This document shows, one piece after another, positions 4,578 through 15,210 of a DNA stretch of 64,000 bases. Below the pieces are notes generated by a model. It searched no databases. It saw only the letters and a list, made by a program, of their open reading frames with translations, and had not been told where the DNA came from. The DNA is from an uncultured Nitrososphaerales archaeon (lineage in GTDB: Archaea > Thermoproteota > Nitrososphaeria > Nitrososphaerales > Nitrososphaeraceae). Numbering within the stretch: position 1 is the stretch's first letter; every line of letters starts with the position of its first letter. The position numbers and the translations under genes were made by a program. Where the stretch lies: NCBI GenBank assembly GCA_963695855.1, contig CAVOHZ010000010.1:160001-224000 (forward strand). Reading direction: 5' to 3'.

Positions 4578-6149
4578 CTAGGGATAGGGAATTGGCAATA
4601 TGAATGGTACTTGTGATGTCGGATTTATTGGTGACTCAGTAGAAGGACGTTGTTCATTAGCAGAACTTAATATTCTAGTATCTTGTTGTTGTTGTTCTTG
4701 TTGTTGTTTTAATTGTTGTTGTTCTTGTTGTTGTTTTAATTGTTGTTGTTGCTTTAGTTTTTGTTGTAGGTGTAATTGTTTAAATTGTTGTTGTTCTTGT
4801 TGTTGTTTCAATTGTTGTTGTTGTTTTAGTTTTTGTTGTAGGTGTAATTGTTTAAATTGTTGTTGTTCTTGTTGTTGTTTTACAGGTTGTTCTTGTTGTT
4901 TTTGTTGCATTATTGCACTACCAGAATTCAATAGTCTAGTATCTTTTTGTTGTTGTTGTTGTTCTTGTTGTTGTTTCAATTGTTGTTGTTGTTTTAGTTT
5001 TTGTTGTAGGTGTAATTGTTTAAATTGTTGTTGTTCTTGTTGTTGTTTTACAGGTTGTTCTTGTTGTTTTTGTTGCATTATTGCACTACCAGAATTCAAT
5101 AGTCTAGTATCTTTTTGTTGTTGTTGTTCTTGTTGTTGTTTTACAGGTTGTTCTTGTTGTTTTTGTTGCATTATTGCACTACCAGAATTCAATAGTCTAG
5201 TATCTTTTTGTTGTTGTTGTTCTTGTTGTTGTTTTACAGGTTGTTCTTGTTGTTTTTGTTGCATTATTGCACTACCAGAATTCAATAGTCTAGTATCTTT
5301 TTGTTGTTGTTGTTGTTCTTGTTGTTGTTTTAATTGTTGTTGTTGTTTTATTTTTTCTTGTAGTTGTTGTAGAGGTTGTTCTTGTTGTTGTTTTAATTGT
5401 TGTTGTTGTTTTATTTTTTCTTGTAGTTGTTGTAGAGGTTGTTCTTGTTGTTGTTGCATTACTGCTGAAGTACTATCTGTAGATTTTATATCAGATTGAC
5501 TTACTTCTTTTGCATCATTAGTTACATCAGCACTGTCATTGCCAAGTACTTCTGTTGTATTAATATTGTCATTTGTGAAAGTCTCTGAATCAGTATCGTG
5601 GGATGGACTAAGATAGTGGTTCTCATTATTACATTTAACTATTATTTTTGTGTCTGATCCTAAATAGTATACTTGAGTATTTCCAGGATTGCTATTGAAT
5701 TCTTCAGATGAAATTAATTGCGTAGCCTCATCATTAGCCTTTTTTAAAGCTAATGCATTATCTAAAATAGGTTTAATGGTATCAATATCTTCTATTCCAT
5801 CAGCATTGATATTTCGATTGTTGCAGTTTACTATTTTTACTATTTTTACCTTTTTAATTGGTTTATCGTAATCTTCTTCATATTTTGTGTATGAACCATA
5901 TTTGTCTGATTCTTCCATGTAATCATCATATTTCTCTTTATCTTTTCCTTCATGTTTTTTATAATCTATACTAGAATCATAGCCATAATCATCATATCGT
6001 TTTTCTTTGTATTTTCCATCATCTCTTTCCTGATACTTATCCTTTTCTTCCTTGGCATCTGCGTCAATAACTGATATTGATGCTGTCGTAATAGTGCCAG
6101 TCAATAAGATCGCTATTAAAAGTACGGTAGTAAACGTCGACTTTTGCAT
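4578..6149 (-). CDS. Secreted Gln-rich repetitive protein, two-Cys family member
   Basis: Probable start MQKST at 6149 (ORF is open to 6191); signal peptide, D/K/E/Y-rich segment, VNCNNRNIN...VKCNNEN core, about 260 aa of Q-rich repeats, C-terminal PFILPIPYP. Confidence 0.8.
   Translation of the reverse strand: MQKSTFTTVLLIAILLTGTITTASISVIDADAKEEKDKYQERDDGKYKEKRYDDYGYDSSIDYKKHEGKDKEKYDDYMEESDKYGSYTKYEEDYDKPIKKVKIVKIVNCNNRNINADGIEDIDTIKPILDNALALKKANDEATQLISSEEFNSNPGNTQVYYLGSDTKIIVKCNNENHYLSPSHDTDSETFTNDNINTTEVLGNDSADVTNDAKEVSQSDIKSTDSTSAVMQQQQEQPLQQLQEKIKQQQQLKQQQEQPLQQLQEKIKQQQQLKQQQEQQQQQKDTRLLNSGSAIMQQKQQEQPVKQQQEQQQQKDTRLLNSGSAIMQQKQQEQPVKQQQEQQQQKDTRLLNSGSAIMQQKQQEQPVKQQQEQQQFKQLHLQQKLKQQQQLKQQQEQQQQQKDTRLLNSGSAIMQQKQQEQPVKQQQEQQQFKQLHLQQKLKQQQQLKQQQEQQQFKQLHLQQKLKQQQQLKQQQEQQQLKQQQEQQQQDTRILSSANEQRPSTESPINPTSQVPFILPIPYP
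4681..5460 (-). repeat. Composite CAA-rich coding tandem repeat
   Basis: Near-identical DNA modules: DTRLLNSGSAIMQQKQQEQPVKQQQEQQQ x4, FKQLHLQQKLKQQQQLKQQQEQQQ x3, QPLQQLQEKIKQQQQLKQQQ x2. Confidence 0.95.
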
Positions 6150-7344
6150 ATTGACAGTAGGATTATCACATTTATTTAGAGTGTGCATCATTGTAATATT
6201 ATTTTACTCTATTTCTTGCCATCAGTTAATTGTTATTATTTATTGTTTCAAGATTATGATGAATAACAATCTTTATTTTAAAGCATAATTTTTAAAATAA
6301 TACTGTTAGAAAGGTTTTTTTGGCCCTGTTAACTTAAGGATTAAAGTAGTTCTACATTCTACTTTTCTATTATGTTCTGTGCTCAATTTTTCATAGGTTT
6401 TTCGATTTATTTAATTAACTTTCCTTAAATCAACATCCATGAAAATCTATCTGTATGCTGGTTATCTTTTTTATCCTGTTTAGCCATATTTTGTTGCGTT
6501 TTTCTATCTATTAAGCATTGTTAACAATAGCCTCCGCTATATATGGCATCCTTGTTCTCTGATGTAGTCGTATTGTTGTTTTTGTTGTCTAATTATCTTT
6601 CTTTTTCTTGAGATCCAATCTTGTTCAGTCTCTCCAGTTTCTGTTCATATCTAGTCCTGTTCATGTATCTATACGATTGGTGTCTTGTTAGCATGTACCA
6701 TATTATAACAAGCACCTCCTTTGCTGTTGCAACTATTGCTTTCCCATGTCCCTTTCTCTGTTTGATTCTTTCATAGAATGTTCTCATGTGACGGTCATGT
6801 CTTACTGCGGATAATGAACACTGTACCAGTATCCATCTCAATAGTGGTGATCCCTGTTTGGTTATTCTACCTGTTTTTGTTTTTCCAGATGATTCTCTTG
6901 TTGATGGAGATAATCCTGCATAACTAACAAGTTTCCATGGTGTTGCAAATCTTTTGATATCCACTATTTCTGTTGATATCAGCATTGCAGAAAATACGTC
7001 TATTCCTGTCATGCTGAGAAGTATCTTTACATCTTGACTATCCTTCCATGCGTATTTTGCTATCTCTTTTGATACTATTTCTATCTGGTTATCTATCGAT
7101 TCTATGGATGTTAGTGTTGTATTCAGTATTATCCTGTCTATTGGTGAAACTGAGAGTGATTTTAGCCACTCAGTTCCCGATCTACCGAATATGTCTGTCA
7201 GCTCTGTTCTGTACTCATATTTGTCTAAAATAGCATGTACCTTGTTTGCAAGTTTTGTCTTGGTTCTAGACAAGACTATTCTATGTCTGACCAGACTTCT
7301 TTTTTCTCTGAATTCCTTTCTTTACAGGTACATATGACTCGTAT

Positions 7345-8373
7345 GCTCTGTTGCATGATTCATTAATTTATTGATAATAATTCTGTGGTTGTAGTCTTTT
7401 ATGTTGTGGATATAAACAAATTGTATAATGATGCTTTCAACATTATCTCTTTTACCATGTTTGGATATTTAACAGCAGATACATATTCACCAAACATTCT
7501 CTTCATAGAGGAAAAGACAGATTCTACAACCCATCTCTTGCCATAGCTAACGCTATCCTTCCATTTATTAAAATCAGTTTTCTGTTCTACTACTCCAAGA
7601 TTTCTTTTATAGTGATTGTCATTTCTGATTCTAGCATTCTTTCTTACCTTTATTGCTGGTTTAATATTGTTGAATGAAAGAAATTGGAATATCTTGTTGT
7701 TATCGTATGAACCATCTGCTATCACAGTATTTACATCGATATTCTGTTTTCTGACTATATCATGTACGAGTATAGGTAATACTTTTGAATCATGTACTTT
7801 TTCTGTAGTAACGTTTAGAGATAGAATCTTTGCTTTCTTCTCATTCTTTTTTCTACCGCTTATATCTACTGCTACATGAATCTTGAGGTATCCTTTTCTT
7901 TTCTACTTTTACAGTGCCACTTCTTATGACGCATCCACTCTCCTCTATTTGTTACCTTTATTCCTGTAGAATCAATTGCTATAATAACATCATTACCTCC
8001 TAATTTGTTGTTGTTAACATGAATATCAAGTTTGTTTATTCTTCTATCTATTGTACTATAATCGGGAATTGATGGGATTTTATTTTCAGCATGAGCTCTT
8101 ACTATACCTTCAGTCTGCCTGAATGGAAGATGAAAATACACTCTTGCATATCCAAGTAATAAGAGAAATGAGTTGGGATAGTGATGTGGTTCTCCAACTT
8201 TACCTTTGTTCATTTCTTTCAATTCATTATCCCAATTATCTATAATATCAAATCCAAGCATAATTTCTCCACGCTTAACAAGAGATTGATTATATTGTCT
8301 CCAGTTTAACACATAATATGAATATAACAGGTTAGCTAAATAGATTAGCAGTAGTGAATCATGCAACAAACTA
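7345..8373 (-). mobile_element. IS5-family element inserted in the IS110 gene
   Basis: Target duplication gactcgta(t) at 7336-7344 and 8374-8382; terminal IRs share a perfect 14-bp core tgttgcatgattca. Confidence 0.92.
7399..8320 (-). pseudogene. IS5-family DDE transposase, frameshifted near 7893-7902
   Basis: NWRQYNQSLVKRG, IAIDSTGIK, RKGYLKIHVAVD, ADGSYD, RWVVESVFS; the frame is restored by deleting one copy of ctttt; start position approximate. Confidence 0.88.
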
Positions 8374-8749
8374 GACTCGTATACCAATCAATCCAGTTCT
8401 CAGCAGATCAGATAGTATACATGCGTCAAGTTTATCTGATTTTATCTTTGCTTGTGCTATTATCTTTGTTCTGTATGGATTTGCTAGTACTGTATCTATT
8501 CCATTATCTTCCAGCGTATCATGTATTCTCATCCACATGTTTCCTGTAGATTCCAGTACTGCATTACATTTTTTTGTTCCATGATTGTGTATCCTTTCAA
8601 TCAGTTCTAATATTCCATCAGAATTGTTACCAAAGAAGAATTCATTCAGTGTCTTGCCTTTATCATCTTTTAGTGCTGCCCTGCATTTTCTCTTTCCAAC
8701 ATCTATTCCAAGATGATTCAATTATTTTTATTCACCTTCTTTTTTTATT

Positions 8750-8874
8750 TGTTGGCTAACAGGTGGCAAACATCCATCCACCCTCGAAGGGTACTATGAT
8801 AGCCACTTCACAGATACGGTTCAGTCAGAGCCTCACTCTCATACGGAGTATGTTAATTTTGAACCTAGCCAACA
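8750..8874 (-). ncRNA. Putative IS110 bridge/seek RNA
   Basis: Outer stem tgttggcta/tagccaaca enclosing two hairpins with large internal loops; loops carry 9-nt exact matches to the insertion flank (ggctctgac) and to the element end (atggatgtt). Confidence 0.78.
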
Positions 8875-8889
8875 TACAGTAATGAAACA

Positions 8890-8906
8890 GACTAAAAGAT
8901 TTTCAT
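8890..8906 (-). promoter_or_regulatory. Candidate BRE/TATA promoter for the IS110 ncRNA and gene
   Basis: Minus strand atgaaaat-cttttagt; the TATA-like element begins about 24 nt upstream of the RNA outer stem and overlaps the subterminal IR. Confidence 0.45.
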
Positions 8907-9694
8907 ATCGTCAGAGCCCTAGAAAGACTAGTAAATTAATTTTTATATAAATAATTATTTCTCTTAATAAAATAAATTTGACTAGATGGCTATAACGGCC
9001 AACATATGCATGGATAATATAATGATATAGATTTTGAAAGATATCAAAGGTAGAAATAGTCTCAGATTATATGGTATATTTAATGGATAAAGGATGTGTA
9101 CTTTGTATTTTTAAACTGTGATCTTTTACTAACTTTGCAAAATTTATTTATTTATGAGAAGTGATCATAATATACAGTTCAAAAAAGGGTTTTGATAAAA
9201 ATTGATTAGAATCCAAGATTATTACTATTTTGAAATCAATTCATTATTATCTCATCATTCATAGTTAATATAATGAAAAAGAACAGGATAACATGATCTT
9301 TCTGGATATAATGTATATATAATATTTATATATCGAACCAAAAAATTTGTATAAATATTATTGTTAGAACAAAAAGATGAGATTACAGCAAGACAAATAT
9401 CCTCTATGACTACTAGATCACTTTTAAAAATTGAGATACATTACATCATATTTATTTTTCTCTATCCTTATTGTGTACCCATTTTGACGTAATAAATATT
9501 GTTTTAATGTGTGTACGCTATGTAATTTGAATACCAGAAAGTATAAGACAATAAATTTTTCAACCTATTCCAAAATTAGTAGCTTAATAAATAATTACTA
9601 CTAACTTGATAATAAAACTATGGAATATAAAAAAAGAAAAAAGAAAGATCCCTTCATAGTTCAATAATATTCTTTAGCCTACAGCCATTCCCGT

Positions 9695-10415
9695 CTAGAT
9701 TTTAAGTATTTTAGCTTTTAATAAACTAAGGAGAGCCTCTGCAACTTGATCTTGTTCTTCAGCATCTAAATTTTGCAATACATCGTTAATTGTTTTAATC
9801 GTTTCTATTAGCGTGGCAGGACCATCAGCTTTAACTACATCAATAATATTACATATATCACCTAGGGAAAAACTTTCAATTATATATATCTGTAAAGTCT
9901 AGCAAAACTCCACCAACTCGTATAAATGAGTCTGGTAAACTACCGGTGGATGTGATAAGCTGTTCCTCCAAATCTGCACTTAGTTTTTCAAGGCAGGCTT
10001 CACAACCTAATACTTCTTCTGGTTGCGGTGCTAAAGTTCTTTCATTTTGTTCTGGTTGTTTTACTCAATATTTCACAGGATCATTAAAGTTTGTACATAT
10101 AACTGTAAGCTGATCATCATCTGAAACCCAATTATTTCCTCCATCATTTTGGACATTATTTGATTCAGTTAGCTTTAATAGATCATTAGTTACCTCTGGT
10201 ATTATATCATCATTTAATATTTCAATATTGAAATTTCCGATATTACACTCATTTTTCTCCACTATCACTTTTTCTTTGTAATTGTCCATTCCATATTCTT
10301 GTTGTGCTTGCGATTCCATCATAAAAGATAGAGAAGATACAACAAATATTCCCGCAACTAAGACGGTTGACAAAAATACTGAACTATATTTTCTAATTAC
10401 GGATTTTTTCATCAT
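9695..10415 (-). pseudogene. Secreted two-Cys family paralog with internal stop and frameshift
   Basis: Signal peptide SSVFLSTVLVAG; NECNIGNFNI...VICTNFND; in-frame TGA at 10065-10067 followed by open VKQPEQ...GCEACLEK.. and then a shifted helical C-terminus ending at 9695. Confidence 0.7.
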
Positions 10416-10444
10416 TTAACTTTACCAATATAAAGTATATCTAG

Positions 10445-10457
10445 AATACGAATGATT
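10445..10457 (-). promoter_or_regulatory. Shared upstream motif AATCATTCGTATT
   Basis: Identical 13-mer, 32 nt before ATG 10412; same motif and spacing at 11274 and 14755. Confidence 0.65.
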
Positions 10458-10767
10458 GATAGAGAGAGATAAAGTATTACATTTTAATTTGTAAAAAGGA
10501 TAGAAGAATGTAGAATAATATTTTGAAATATCTTTAGATAACATTATACTCTGGAATTCACTAATTTTTTACTGTATAATTCAATTCAGATCATTTTCAA
10601 ATCCGTTAACTTCACTCATCTAAAAGTTAAACATCAAACAAATATTTAGCTGTAAAAAAATCTATTAGTATTAAAAAAATAAAAAAAAGTTAAGTTTTTT
10701 TTAAATTATTTAATTTTTAGGATGTTTGTTTGACTGGCACTGTTATTTACGTGGCATCAATCCTAGA

Positions 10768-11241
10768 CTAGTTTACGGATCCAGCGGTCACGGAATTTTC
10801 ATTTACGGATCCAACGGTCCCGAAATTTTCATTGTCGCCAAAGTTAATACATATATTTTCAATATCAAGTTCTAATCCACTGCCACCATTGCTCTCTATT
10901 CCTACATCATTACTCCCAATAGCAAATGATGCATCCATTTCTTCTCCTATTGAATTGATATTTTCATCACTTGATGCTGCTGAATTGGTATCTGCCTGTG
11001 TTAGCATAGAACTAAGTATTGAAGCCTCAAATTCTGAAAATTCGCCAATATTGTAATTGCTAACAGAACATTCGGCTTTATTGTATTTCCAACCTTGTTT
11101 CTCATACTTCATGTCTTTCTCATACTTCCTGTCTTCGTCTGCAAATGCAAGAGAGGGAGAAGCTATTGCAATAACTCCTGCCACTAATACAGCTGCTAAA
11201 AAAATTGAACTACTTTTGTGTAATTTGCTGTTGTTGTTCAT
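10768..11241 (-). CDS. Secreted two-Cys family protein
   Basis: Likely start MNNNSK at 11241; signal peptide ending in AFA; AECSVSNYNI...NICINFGDN; 30-bp C-terminal duplication. Confidence 0.8.
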   Translation of the reverse strand: MNNNSKLHKSSSIFLAAVLVAGVIAIASPSLAFADEDRKYEKDMKYEKQGWKYNKAECSVSNYNIGEFSEFEASILSSMLTQADTNSAASSDENINSIGEEMDASFAIGSNDVGIESNGGSGLELDIENICINFGDNENFGTVGSVNENSVTAGSVN

Positions 11242-11351
11242 TGTTAGATAAGAATGAACATACATATATTTGAAATACGAATGATTAGTAACTACTTTTT
11301 GAAGCTATTTTTCTAATTGTTGATTTTTCATAAATAAATTTGATAAGATAA
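11138..11351. repeat. Direct repeat copy 1: promoter + signal-peptide cassette
   Basis: About 214 bp with about 4 mismatches to 14619-14832. Confidence 0.93.
11274..11286 (-). promoter_or_regulatory. Shared upstream motif AATCATTCGTATT
   Basis: 32 nt before ATG 11241. Confidence 0.65.
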
Positions 11352-11827
11352 TCAGAGAAATTTATCTTTATTTTATTTTTAACAATTAAAAGTATTTAAT
11401 AAAAACCTGTAGCCAGAAAATAAAAAAGGAAAACTAGTAGAATGTTAGATTACATTCATCTTATAATCATTAAAGCTTAGTTATTTTGGATATATATAAT
11501 ATCATTCTTTCATTTTTTAATCAACTTCTTTAGAAAATATAGTATATATTTTCTATCTTTGTTATAAGCAATTTAATAGAGTTGAGTTCAACAACAAAAA
11601 CATGTTTAGATATATATCAGAAACACAGAACTTTGTTTTGTTTAGACAAATTCAAAATAGAAATGTTGACAACTACCAACTTGAATGACAGTTTCATATA
11701 TTAGGAATGCAATATTTTTTTATTTATAAACCGTATATTGTAGAAATCTTTGTATAATTTCCGTAGCCATCCATATTTTACTTTGACCTATAACGATTAT
11801 TGACGCATTGGAAATATCTTAAAATTT

Positions 11828-11898
11828 GGCCCTGTTAAGTTATGGATAAAGTAATAGATATGTTCTACTTTTTTTATATTATGTTCTGTGCTCAATTT
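11828..11898. mobile_element. Second copy of the IS6-like miniature element end
   Basis: ggccctgttaagttatgg...ttctactttt...tattatgttctgtgctcaattt, homologous to 6322-6389. Confidence 0.7.
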
Positions 11899-11909
11899 CA
11901 GAAGAATTT

Positions 11910-12200
11910 TGCCTTGTTGCACAAGTCATTTAGATAATCATTTATCTCTGTCTTGCAATACTAATTGATAATTATGTAATGACTATACTCTGGAACCAAT
12001 TATACAACGATACCTTCAGCATTACCTCCCTTACTATATTTTCAAATCTAATATAATAGTAGTAACATATTCTCCAAACATTCTCTTGATACAAGAGAAG
12101 ATAGTTTCTACAATCCATCTCTAGCGATAGCTAACGTTATCCTTCCATTGTTGTAGAACAGTTTTCTGTGATTGTACAGCCTTGTTTCTGAGATAGCTAA
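11910..12200 (-). pseudogene. IS5-family 3' remnant with terminal IR
   Basis: End tgccttgttgcacaagtca resembles the IS5 IR at 7344; translates YLRNKAV..QWKDNVSYR*RWIVETIFSCIKRMFGEYV. Confidence 0.8.
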
Positions 12201-12403
12201 GTTTAATAAGATTCACAAAATAAGCTCTATGTTTCATATGATTAGATATCTATAATAATTAGTTCATTTACGATCCATATCTTCTTAACTATATATATCA
12301 AATTAAAGTAGTATAACAGAATGCTAATGTATGAATATAATAATTCAATAAAATTTAAAATTCTTATCGAGTAGATCATATTATAATGTATAATTTAATC
12401 TAT

Positions 12404-12925
12404 TTAATTTGGCAAATATCGAGCTGCCACATATACTGGAATATGAATAGTAAATTTATCTAATTCTGAATCATAAATTGTATAAGTAGAGCTTAAATCA
12501 ATATCATCATAATTTAGATTAAATATTTGATTATTTACCTTGACATTCTTTGCTTGCATAATAGGAAAGTCTATTCTTAACTTATTTTTACCATTTTCAT
12601 AAATGTTCTCTAATTCTGTCTTTACTTTTATATCCGTTGCAAATATCTGAAAACCTAGTAAATTATATTCTAAAACAGGAATTAAATATTCTACTGGCTG
12701 ATTCGTATTTAATACCATATTCTTGATAGTATCGTTCGGAAAGATTTGATTGGAATTGATATCTATCATAAATTCCAAATTGCTAGTTGTTAATTTATTT
12801 TTTAAATTGTTGAGTATATTATCAAAAATGTTAGTATCAGTATTGAAGTATTGGGCATGTACGATAGATGTATTATTTGTACCCATTATTAATACAAATA
12901 AAAAAATTAAAATTATAATCTTCAT
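12404..12925 (-). CDS. Hypothetical secreted protein
   Basis: 173 aa; hydrophobic N-terminal signal ending VHA-Q. Confidence 0.7.
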   Translation of the reverse strand: MKIIILIFLFVLIMGTNNTSIVHAQYFNTDTNIFDNILNNLKNKLTTSNLEFMIDINSNQIFPNDTIKNMVLNTNQPVEYLIPVLEYNLLGFQIFATDIKVKTELENIYENGKNKLRIDFPIMQAKNVKVNNQIFNLNYDDIDLSSTYTIYDSELDKFTIHIPVYVAARYLPN

Positions 12926-13038
12926 ATATAATTGAGATGATGTTTTAATTTCTTATATATTCTTTTGATTTTTACCAGATGATAATTTTTGTTCAAAAAT
13001 CGAGTATTATAATAATCAATTACCTCGATATCTTCTAA

Positions 13039-13771
13039 GGTTCTTTTAAGTTAAGCAGCAAAAGCTATAGATAGGCATGTTCTCTTTATGGTATGAAAGT
13101 TAGATTTGAAAGAAAACAGAACAGAAGGTCCACTTTTATCACAGTGTATTTTCTTTATATCTATGCTTTCTTTATACTTGATCTAAGTTTAAGAAATATT
13201 TCCAAGGCATTAGTGATGTTTAGAGATGAGAAGAGAAGTTATGCTTCTGTTTGGAACTGGATTCAAAGGTTTTGATCCTCAGATCTATAAAAGAAAAACA
13301 GTGCCTGCTTTTATAATAGACGAATCACTTATTCAATCAGGTAAGCAGTATTTCTGGCTATGGATATATGTATCCAACCAATTCACAGTTCAGTGCTTAG
13401 AATATACATTCAAAGGGAAGAAATATTTGATGATTGCTGAAAAATTTATTGGATCTACTGTATGAAACCATGGAAAACATATTGTATACACAGAGATGGA
13501 GGTACATGACATGATGAAGCTTGTAATGTCTTGAGATTAAAACATTATTTAGATTCTGCGTTAGAGAAAAGTTATATGGAAATACTCAATCGGTAATTTA
13601 AGGACAGAATAGAGAGTTTTGATGACTAGTATCCACTTATGCAAGAGGAATGTAATCTATTACAGGTACATAACGAGATACAATACTTTGTATCCATGTG
13701 TAATGATACAATAACAAATAATAATGATTTTGAGTTAGAGGAAGTAAATATTGCCTTAAATTAACAGAGCT
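13039..13771 (+). mobile_element. Decayed IS6-family element
   Basis: Fragments LSLRNISKAL..RSYASVWNWIQRF, FIIDESLI..YFWLWI; imperfect IRs ggttcttttaagttaag and cttaaattaacagagc; many stops and frameshifts. Confidence 0.8.
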
Positions 13772-14101
13772 TAAAATTTAGATAAGATATTAAAATATAA
13801 GGAATAATAACAATAACTGTGAATGTTCTTTTTTTCATTCAAACTTGTTTTACATATTAGAAACATATTAGCAATATTATTTCCATAAATTAACATAAAC
13901 GTCATACCATTGATACTCTAAATTGGAATTAAATTTTTGATATATTATGAAAGAAATATGTAACATACTAGATTTATATAGAATCGATAAAGCAAGTGTA
14001 TTAAAAATTCGACAATAAGTAAGACTGGTTCAAGAAGATAATAACACTAAAATTATATTTAAAAATAAAAAGGAGGGAAAAATTGAGTCTTCATTTATAG
14101 T

Positions 14102-14722
14102 TTAGTCTTCTTCGCCTACGAATCCACCGAAGGTGTTATCAGCCCAGTTGATGCATATATTTTTGATGTGAATGCTTAATCCACCATCAGATAACGAACC
14201 TAACAACTGTGGTGAAGTTAGTTCTGAAGGTAAATCTAGTTGTTGAGCTGCTGCTGCACCAGGACCTTTCTGTATTTCCTTGGAATTGAATTTATTAATA
14301 TTGAAATTGTTGGCATCACACTTAAAGCCGTCATAATGTGAACTACCATCTCTCTTCTTTTCTTTGTATGGATCATAGGAGTGTTCCTTTTCTTTGTATC
14401 CATCATAGGAGTGTTCCTTTTCTTTGTATGGATCATAGGAGTGTTCCTTTTCTTTGTATCCATCATAGGAGTGTTCCTTTTCTTTGTATGGATCATAGGA
14501 GTGTTCCTTTTCTTTGTATCCATCATAGGAGTGTTCCTTTTCTTTGTATGGATCATAGGAGTGTCTCTTTTCTTTGTAGCCATCATAAGACTTGTATTCT
14601 TTTTCGTATTTTTCAGATTCTGCAAATGCAATAGAGGGAGAAGCTATTGCGATAACTCCTGCCACTAATACAGCTGCCAAAAAGATTGAACTACTTTTGT
14701 GTAATTTGCTGTTGTTGTTCAT
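14102..14722 (-). CDS. Secreted two-Cys family protein with KEKEHSYD(P/G)Y repeats
   Basis: Likely start at 14722; signal peptide nearly identical to the 10768 paralog; FKCDANNFNI...NICINWADN. Confidence 0.82.
   Translation of the reverse strand: MNNNSKLHKSSSIFLAAVLVAGVIAIASPSIAFAESEKYEKEYKSYDGYKEKRHSYDPYKEKEHSYDGYKEKEHSYDPYKEKEHSYDGYKEKEHSYDPYKEKEHSYDGYKEKEHSYDPYKEKKRDGSSHYDGFKCDANNFNINKFNSKEIQKGPGAAAAQQLDLPSELTSPQLLGSLSDGGLSIHIKNICINWADNTFGGFVGEED
14357..14592 (-). repeat. 30-bp coding tandem repeat with alternating 60-bp higher-order period
   Basis: About 8 units strictly alternating DPY and DGY. Confidence 0.95.
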
Positions 14723-14832
14723 TGTTAGATAAGAATGAACATACATATATTTGAAATACGAATGATTAGTAACTACTTTTTGAAGCTATTTTTCTAATTG
14801 TTGATTTTTCATAAATAAATTTGATAAGATAA
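14619..14832. repeat. Direct repeat copy 2: promoter + signal-peptide cassette
   Basis: Matches 11138-11351 (offset 3481); contains the AATCATTCGTATT motif at 14755-14767. Confidence 0.93.
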
Positions 14833-15031
14833 AAAGAAAAAATTTTATTTGTTGAGGAGTAGTGAGAACAAACAGAAAAAGATTATAAAAGTATATTATA
14901 AAGAAATTAGAGAGATAAAACAACTAGTACATAGATGCTAGAAAAGAGACATATATACATATTATGACTACAAATTCCCATCAACAACAGTAAGAGTAAC
15001 AATAACAAGCATGACTACTATTACTACCACT

Positions 15032-15210
15032 ACCAACACGACCACTACCAACACGACTACTACCAACACGACTACTACCAACACGACTACTACCAACACG
15101 ACTACTACCAACACGACTACTACCAACACGACTACTACCAACACGACTACTACCAACACGACTACTACCAACACGACTACTACCAACACGACTACTACCA
15201 ACACGACTAC
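15032..15210. repeat. 15-bp tandem repeat accaacacgactact, about 12 copies
   Basis: Near-perfect array without spacers; coding strand and frame unresolved. Confidence 0.95.

Follow-up and report, generated by a model that had tools for sequence, protein, structure and literature searches.

The 64,000-nucleotide (nt) window analysed here, which covers positions 160,001 to 224,000 of contig CAVOHZ010000010.1 from an uncultured Nitrososphaerales archaeon (assembly GCA_963695855.1), carries four minus-strand paralogs, termed A, B, C, and D. These genes very probably belong to a family of secreted modular proteins that is uncatalogued and restricted to one genus; its members join one N-terminal Asn/Cys module (hereafter, the core) to spacers, cargo domains, and tails that are interchangeable. 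The extracellular and modular nature of the family is well supported. The explanation of the whole that we tentatively favour, namely, a modular secreted family of one genus whose core is a disulfide-locked assembly module, is possible but stops short of being probable.

A sequence-only reading of the window had proposed four secreted proteins with a shared two-cysteine motif, and calling of open reading frames (ORFs) confirmed all four at their places, together with every motif quoted for them. In each protein, a signal-peptide-like N-terminus is followed by a D/E/K/Y-rich (Tyr/Asp/Lys) spacer and by a core of approx. 70 amino acids (aa) with the pattern C-x3-N-x-N ... C-x-N. The N-terminal hydrophobic segments reach Kyte-Doolittle means of 2.3-3.0 over 15 aa, and from these segments the proteins look secreted, as had been claimed. 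Paralog A (4578..6191; 537 aa) is composed of a putative signal peptide, a K/E/D/Y spacer, a core (VNCNNRNIN ... VKCNNEN; 5607..5840), and a long Gln-rich repeat tail, whose tandem repeats (4681..5456) have periods of 63-261 nt. Its likely start is Met15 at 6149, which is where its ortholog starts and which would leave two Cys in mature A. Paralog B (10065..10415; 116 aa) comprises a putative signal peptide, a short spacer, and a core, and ends with a TGA codon at 10065-10067. Paralog C (10768..11265; 165 aa) has a short K/E/Y spacer behind its putative signal peptide, the core with the longest linker (AECSVSNYNI ... NICINFGDN; 10822..11085), and a short tail. In paralog D (14102..14746; 214 aa), the putative signal peptide is followed by a spacer of HSYD(G/P)YKEKE decamers, a core (FKCDANNFNI ... 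NICINWADN; 14126..14335), and a very short tail; D had been located correctly, except that its end had been set at 14722, which is its second Met, whereas the ORF extends to 14746. All four cores contain exactly two Cys, spaced by 64 (A), 50 (B), 73 (C), and 55 (D) residues, and the invariant columns of a 24-row core alignment are C, N, N ... C, N. Against Pfam, A-D returned only chance-level rows at E <= 1.

Pairwise comparison relates the cores of C and D (BLASTP E 6e-07), and the matches of A and B with D run mostly via the signal peptide and spacer. A hidden Markov model (HMM) of the four cores retrieved 19 further paralogs from the 9,354 ORFs of the genome, 18 of which outrank the first non-member, and the iterated search converged at 30 ORFs. 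The core of the further paralogs is far better conserved than in A-D and has the form IQKIKCVNSNINVNGIDITQIP ... INFDRNLVNICVNVNDNEQ, termed the canonical type. Built on 24 canonical cores and nothing else, an HMM fails to find A-D (B came closest, at E 5.1 with filters off), and A-D are therefore called divergent. Profile-profile alignment with hhalign related the four-row A-D profile to the canonical type at a probability of only 62.7% (E 7.2e-05); it matched a 13-row profile of A-D and their orthologs to 73 canonical cores (96.0%, E 4.2e-09, 69 columns), and the A-D-type profile to two other subgroups (95.7-97.6%), although these groups were picked by motif among sequences gathered by a family HMM, and hence, the comparison is not blind. 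The motifs of the sequence-only reading align significantly by this measure, and, judged by their profiles, A-D are genuine but divergent members of one larger family.

The distribution of the family is narrow. In the window's genome, six-frame searches with the profile found 38-39 matches; they also found matches in 18 of the 24 other genomes of the genus (0 to 24 per genome), and none in 16 genomes representing 16 other families of the order. Likewise, 129 genomes that represent 17 further genera of Nitrososphaeraceae had no match to the profile. The paralog count that had been suggested for Nitrososphaerales yields many members, but in one genus only and not across the order. Among 1,835,955,588 representative proteins, 153 matched the profile at E <= 1e-3 and 70 at E <= 1e-10. 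The representative set analysed comprises 150 of the 153 matches, and 149 representatives were pooled with the 30 genome ORFs into a set of 179 sequences. P0143, a CBM6 protein with a Por secretion tail, was taken as a false match. A locus search with one canonical protein returned nine loci, all in Nitrososphaeraceae or Nitrososphaerales archaeon records, and viral contigs contained no relative of a canonical family protein. The core is also uncatalogued, in agreement with the earlier failure to recognise a named domain: no Pfam model lies over it in any of the 150 representatives, profile searches yielded no match among PDB sequences at E <= 10 and only chance-level rows, far under the cut-offs, in NCBIfam, and the ESM Atlas gave no usable match to the core profile. 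A keyword-based literature search, which is a weak negative, turned up no description of the family.

A full-length core is found in 134 of the 179 pooled sequences, and 122 of these 134 contain both motifs. Exactly two Cys are present in 119 of the 122 cores, at a spacing of 50-73 residues (median 57). In the family consensus, the heptad C-[VI]-N-x-N-x-N occurs at both Cys, and each strand is an alternation of hydrophobic residues with Cys and Asn, which gives two amphipathic strand-like segments. Some of the conserved Asn are imposed by the motif filter; at the free positions, conservation reaches 83% at N+2 of strand 1 and 91% and 95% at N+4 and N+6 of strand 2, respectively. The strands are far better conserved than the linker, which is variable and rich in Ala, Gly, Asn, Glu, and Thr. 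The conserved Asn were considered as N-glycosylation sites and rejected as such because the strands contain hardly any N-x-S/T sequon (no strand position has one in more than 3 of 127 cores).

An N-terminal hydrophobic segment is present in 92 of 141 proteins with a near-full core, and these 92 are referred to below as complete members; many of the others are N-terminally cut metagenome fragments or have miscalled starts. In the complete members, the core starts at a median residue of 61 and past residue 150 in only one case, and the Cys count is even in 89. Their spacers contain 17% Tyr, 16% Asp, and 12% Lys, compared with 4.0, 4.8, and 7.3%, respectively, in all ORFs. The core is followed by no more than 25 residues in 28 complete members, by 26-60 in 8, by 61-130 in 38, and by longer stretches in 18; a short core-only subgroup with 'NLNFNN' recurs among the representatives, and 147 of the 150 listed representatives have a single matched stretch per protein. 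Most often, the cargo is a four-Cys helical domain 80-100 aa long (34 sequences by pattern), the HMM of which matches 13 genome ORFs. The cargo that can be named by Pfam is all of extracellular type: TSP_3 in two proteins, FG-GAP_3 in five (three over the cut-off), SpaA-like in two (one over the cut-off), and BNR and Exo_endo_phos in one each.

The modules also occur apart from the core. Spacers like that of D precede core-less secreted proteins. One of these, a 361-aa protein on another contig of the genome (L003:772-1857, minus strand), combines a signal peptide of the same type and a Tyr/Asp/Lys repeat spacer with a hexapeptide-repeat (left-handed beta-helix) domain, and since this protein has it, the spacer is a general N-terminal module of secreted proteins in this organism, a likely enzyme included. 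On the same contig as the window, approx. 51 kilobases (kb) before it, an 816-aa secreted protein that has no Asn/Cys core (L072:1-2451, minus strand) has a K/E/Y/D/N repeat spacer with 30-aa units, a four-Cys helical domain, and Gln-rich repeats of the A type. The Gln-rich module of A is 56% identical to the core-less 816-aa secreted protein over 163 aa (E 2e-17) and is also found in an A-like paralog on another contig.

Within the window, exchange of modules is suggested by C and D. Their cores are only 30% identical, whereas a 235-nt stretch comprising the upstream region and the signal-peptide module (11138..11372 at C and 14619..14853 ahead of D, both on the minus strand) is 95% identical, and 47 of 53 N-terminal residues are the same; this discrepancy points to a recent exchange of the 5' module. 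The His/Tyr/Lys decamers of D are encoded by 30/60-nt tandem repeats (14357..14587, minus strand; period 60, 3.8 copies, 98% matches). They had been described as cargo of D, but their actual place is ahead of the core, behind the signal peptide.

The claim that B carries a CxxC helical domain also had to be revised, because the ORF of B stops at the TGA straight behind the core. The same frame continues behind this TGA as '...PQPEEVLGCEACLEKLS...' for 62 codons, and a frameshift is needed beyond them to reach '...LGDICNII...'. A 77%-identical ortholog of B in another genome has no stop and continues through a Pro/Thr-rich linker, remaining open to '...VIGC' at the contig end. Two RNA-library contigs contain the TGA with zero differences across the stop, and with this confirmation, B as a present gene for a core plus a CxxC helical domain was ruled out. 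The helical-domain HMM found no match behind B at E <= 10 (forced scores of 3.2 and -0.5 bits), and phmmer on the same stretch gave a weak, collinear match (best E 0.0046 among the 179 sequences); none of the intact ORFs of A-D encodes a CxxC ... C ... C helical domain of 80-100 aa. Since the frame of the ortholog is open where B has its TGA, B is probably a truncated descendant of a core-plus-helical-domain gene, and a probable remnant of the linker and four-Cys helical domain (9698..10064, minus strand) has decayed below scoring. In comparison with the 77%-identical ortholog, the ratio of nonsynonymous to synonymous substitution rates (dN/dS) of B is 0.33 over 115 codons, a value indicative of purifying selection. 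Independent short B-like genes (110-123 aa) are present in two other genomes, and B-like and A-like genes are adjacent in a related genome. The region just 5' of B (10416-10560) is conserved at a B-like locus of another genome (L052:708-900), and the translations of spurious ORFs in the two regions are similar ('...YYSTFFY..L.KLK.NTLSLSIN.S.SRYTL'); a conserved promoter or leader is suggested by this similarity. As regards variable cargo, the sequence-only reading thus holds for the combination of the core with interchangeable modules, but not for the helical domain of B or the placement of the decamers in D.

Structure prediction treats the core and the cargo very differently. In an AlphaFold model of a canonical paralog based on a 150-row alignment, the helical cargo has a predicted local distance difference test (pLDDT) score above 90, whereas the core scores approx. 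48-55 and has no secondary structure; the core of D alone, with a 24-row alignment, is likewise without structure (pLDDT 42.5). A Foldseek comparison of the model of one canonical protein (L015) with the PDB gave no match at E <= 1e-3 and is silent on the core, because only the helical cargo is confidently modelled. Prediction of an oligomer of four core copies (L015 residues 68-148) scored 0.01, which speaks neither for nor against binding. According to these models, the core is strongly conserved, yet an autonomous fold is not predicted for it.

Each member of the family consists of a putative Sec-type signal peptide, a low-complexity Tyr/Asp/Lys spacer, often of tandem repeats, one core of approx. 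70 aa, and then either nothing or a variable extracellular domain. In the explanation that we favour, the core would be an assembly module and not a free-standing globular domain; its two Cys/Asn faces would pair and be locked by a disulfide, and the cores of different paralogs would associate. If paralog cores associate in this manner, a single extracellular layer or matrix could incorporate both the abundant core-only proteins and the cargo-bearing ones, much as short and long chaplins end up in the same layer. B, C, and D would then be core-only or spacer-rich subunits, and A would carry a Gln-rich tail. The genes would have evolved in regions where insertion sequences and integrases abound, through the swapping of modules, the expansion of repeats, truncation, and duplication. 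That the core self-assembles is a plausible proposal, and the proposition that it mediates assembly among paralogs, with core-only and cargo-bearing members forming a common extracellular layer, has in our estimation somewhat less than an even chance of being correct. Assembly is favoured over simple tethering because core-only members are frequent and conserved, no autonomous fold is predicted, and the core has two amphipathic Cys/Asn strands; the 28 core-only proteins among the 92 complete members are indirect evidence, in that they fit a structural subunit better than a mere anchor.

The chaplin family of Streptomyces (PF03777/DUF320) is the closest working analogy. As described in parts of one source (PMC5618241), chaplins are also secreted paralogs built around one small conserved two-Cys domain, with short members that comprise little more than the domain and long members that have extra parts, and the short and long forms co-assemble into a surface layer. 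However, chaplin domains are hydrophobic and approx. 40-55 aa long, whereas the core is Asn-rich, approx. 70 aa long, and has a long polar linker; long chaplins are fixed by a sortase signal at the C-terminus, whereas the present proteins have an N-terminal core and variable C-terminal parts; and amyloid formation has been shown for chaplins (PMC5618241), whereas for the present family it would be a prediction. The analogy does not extend to membership, as PF03777 was absent from A-D and four canonical paralogs at E <= 1 and from the 150 representatives at E <= 1e-3 in Pfam scans.

A more specific version of the assembly explanation, which we regard as improbable, is that the core represents a new type of cross-beta unit for extracellular assembly in archaea, in which each protein contributes two disulfide-pinned Asn-ladder strands and both core-only and cargo-bearing paralogs stack into a shared fibre or sheet, which would either make up the cell coat or decorate it. 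If this were true, the family would be a self-built display scaffold with swappable passengers. The HET-s prion-forming domain and two-rung beta-solenoid motifs comprise approx. 70 residues with two related strand segments, a flexible loop, and Asn positions that could stack; HET-s is unstructured as a monomer, cytoplasmic, fungal, and devoid of Cys. The core resembles HET-s in its length, its two short strand segments and loop, its stackable Asn, and its predicted lack of monomer structure. It differs in being secreted, in having two invariant Cys, in the absence of a Pfam match, and in an internal repeat that is a heptad and not significant in a permutation control. Curli CsgA is a secreted protein of strand-loop-strand units with regular Asn/Gln, five tandem repeats, and a dedicated csg secretion/nucleation operon. 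The core shares secretion, the strand-loop-strand arrangement, and spaced Asn with CsgA, and both are candidates for an extracellular matrix; unlike CsgA, it provides a single strand pair in each protein, and the clusters examined had no partner genes beside them. The Curlin repeat had no match in Pfam scans of A-D, four canonical paralogs, and the 150 representatives.

Several points weigh against the assembly explanation. The disulfide, the strand pairing, and the self-association of the core are themselves proposals. Although strand-strand log-odds of the heptad columns are 1.2-2.1 at the V and N positions, the observed internal-repeat score was reached in 3,050 of 20,000 permutation trials, with some N fixed by the filter, and an internal repeat longer than the heptad is not supported. 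The mutual information between the strands (effective number of sequences 56) shows no diagonal and no register. The low AlphaFold confidence of the core could also result from a shallow alignment, and the signal peptides were called by a hydropathy rule and not by a trained predictor. Four other clusters of the family in the genome contain no recurrent sorting, assembly, or disulfide-forming gene. The RNA-library contigs over the window, described below, might stem from DNA carry-over or from relatives. Finally, given that the canonical-core HMM misses them, A-D could have drifted toward another role.

The strongest rival explanation is that the core is a non-polymerising tether to an envelope glycan or lipid or to a receptor protein, which holds variable passengers at the cell surface. 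We consider it unlikely on balance, but it remains strong. SLH, LysM, and dockerin modules hold passengers at the surface in other organisms; these are folded domains with known ligands, and dockerin comprises approx. 70 aa with two duplicated Asp/Asn-rich segments. The family resembles them in that one small shared module is linked to many different extracellular passengers across paralogs: there is one core per protein, always N-terminal (median start 61), ahead of very different passengers, and more than 25 residues follow it in 64 of the 92 complete members. Nonetheless, the core-only proteins, including the recurrent short subgroup, would be odd as anchors without anything to anchor. Known binding modules usually fold, but no fold is predicted for the core, which also often stands alone. 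Moreover, the dockerin, SLH, and LysM models of Pfam had no match in A-D, the canonical paralogs, or the 150 representatives, and no candidate receptor or scaffold gene lies beside the four other clusters.

It is quite improbable that the core is instead a processing or export element, i.e., a pro-region or a motif for a protease, chaperone, or modifying enzyme, which would be removed or modified once the protein has been secreted and would play no structural part. Such an element would account for high sequence conservation despite predicted disorder and for the position of the core directly behind the signal peptide and spacer. However, core-only proteins would then be left without a product, approx. 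70 residues with two invariant Cys are long for a recognition motif, N-glycosylation sequons are almost absent, and no conserved partner enzyme adjoins the clusters.

The genomic surroundings raise the further possibility that the family is mostly evolutionary debris, which duplicates and decays rapidly, rides on mobile regions, and has little present function. Cluster A-D is flanked by housekeeping genes (aconitase, a dethiobiotin-synthase-like protein, and a pyridine-nucleotide-disulfide oxidoreductase), and between A and B lies an IS110-family transposase gene, which does not belong to the family (6593..8721, minus strand). Its N-terminal half (8371-8721, DEDD_Tnp_IS110) and C-terminal half (6593-7273, Transposase_20) are separated by an inserted DDE (IS5-like) transposase gene that is itself in two pieces (7872-8387 and 7399-7725), i.e., a nested insertion. 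The four other clusters adjoin integrases, transposases, and a D5-type primase. Many members are fragments or broken copies, B is truncated, and copy number varies from 0 to 24 among the genomes of the genus. We nonetheless regard this explanation as very improbable: the strands are strongly conserved across representatives, the dN/dS of B is 0.33, Cys parity is conserved, no relative was found on viral contigs, and RNA-library contigs lie over B, C, and D. These contigs, from four soil RNA libraries of four studies, cover B at 10000-10401, part of C at 10804-10948, and D at 14287-14696; they also span part of a gene for a 173-aa protein, and most intergenic bins are empty, although contig depth gives no ranking of expression and uncovered bins prove nothing. 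A further possibility is that the small core-only members act as bioactive peptides after secretion, either archaeocin-like or in signalling, with the core as the disulfide-stabilised active part. This would suit small, secreted, two-Cys proteins with many fast-diverging paralogs in variable regions, but is extremely unlikely, as large adhesion-type domains are found fused to this same core, the neighbourhood has no genes for immunity, export, or maturation, and neither Pfam nor NCBIfam gave an antimicrobial family match.

Other features of the region and the genome are as follows. The 173-aa protein is encoded between C and D (12404-12925, minus strand), has a signal-peptide-like start, is unrelated to A-D, and has no family match; it is conserved (approx. 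48-79% identity) in 15 of the genus's 24 other genomes, and the window's genome contains one paralog of it. At six loci of its gene in six other genomes of the genus, there was no family member and no common neighbour. In the gap between D and the oxidoreductase gene (15029-15210), the 15-nt unit ACTACCAACACGACT is repeated in tandem (12 copies, 99% matches) and is open in several frames. At two other places on the same contig (L065, near 320.7-323.5 kb, and L063, near 1,778.8-1,781.6 kb), a 224-aa family member precedes ORFs of 162 and 110 aa; the two members are near-identical and the spacing is equal, which suggests a segmental duplication of several kb. Integrase and transposase genes are close by. 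The genome contains one ammonium transporter gene, a trait also reported for Nitrosocosmicus in part of PMC11559005.

The soil ammonia-oxidising Nitrososphaeraceae drive nitrification, and the envelopes of most of their genera are uncharacterised. Archaeal protein coats other than S-layers have a precedent in the sheath proteins of methanogens (Methanothrix/Methanosaeta MspA and Methanospirillum), which form amyloid-like coats by beta assembly according to the relevant parts of PMC6242892 and PMC10593813; those proteins are large and single, whereas the present family has 30-odd modular paralogs, and no sequence relation appeared in the searches made. For the related genus Nitrosocosmicus, the passages of PMC11559005 that deal with the envelope describe no S-layer genes and a thick wall, bearing hair-like filaments, that has no known protein component; the link from the present family to this question is by analogy only. 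Gene-duplication-driven genome growth has been reported for this order (bioRxiv 10.1101/2020.04.28.065540, in the part concerned), and the expansion of the family fits that description.

Because it comprises 20-40 secreted paralogs per genome within one genus, with adhesion-type fusions, the family provides a concrete list of candidates for the coat, soil-particle adhesion, or biofilm matrix of these organisms, and it may be a building block of the cell coat or matrix. If the core does not self-assemble, the family would still clearly exemplify how a secreted proteome undergoes lineage-specific expansion and shuffling of modules; if it does, the core would offer a display module that is compact, can be swapped genetically, and belongs to a new sequence class.

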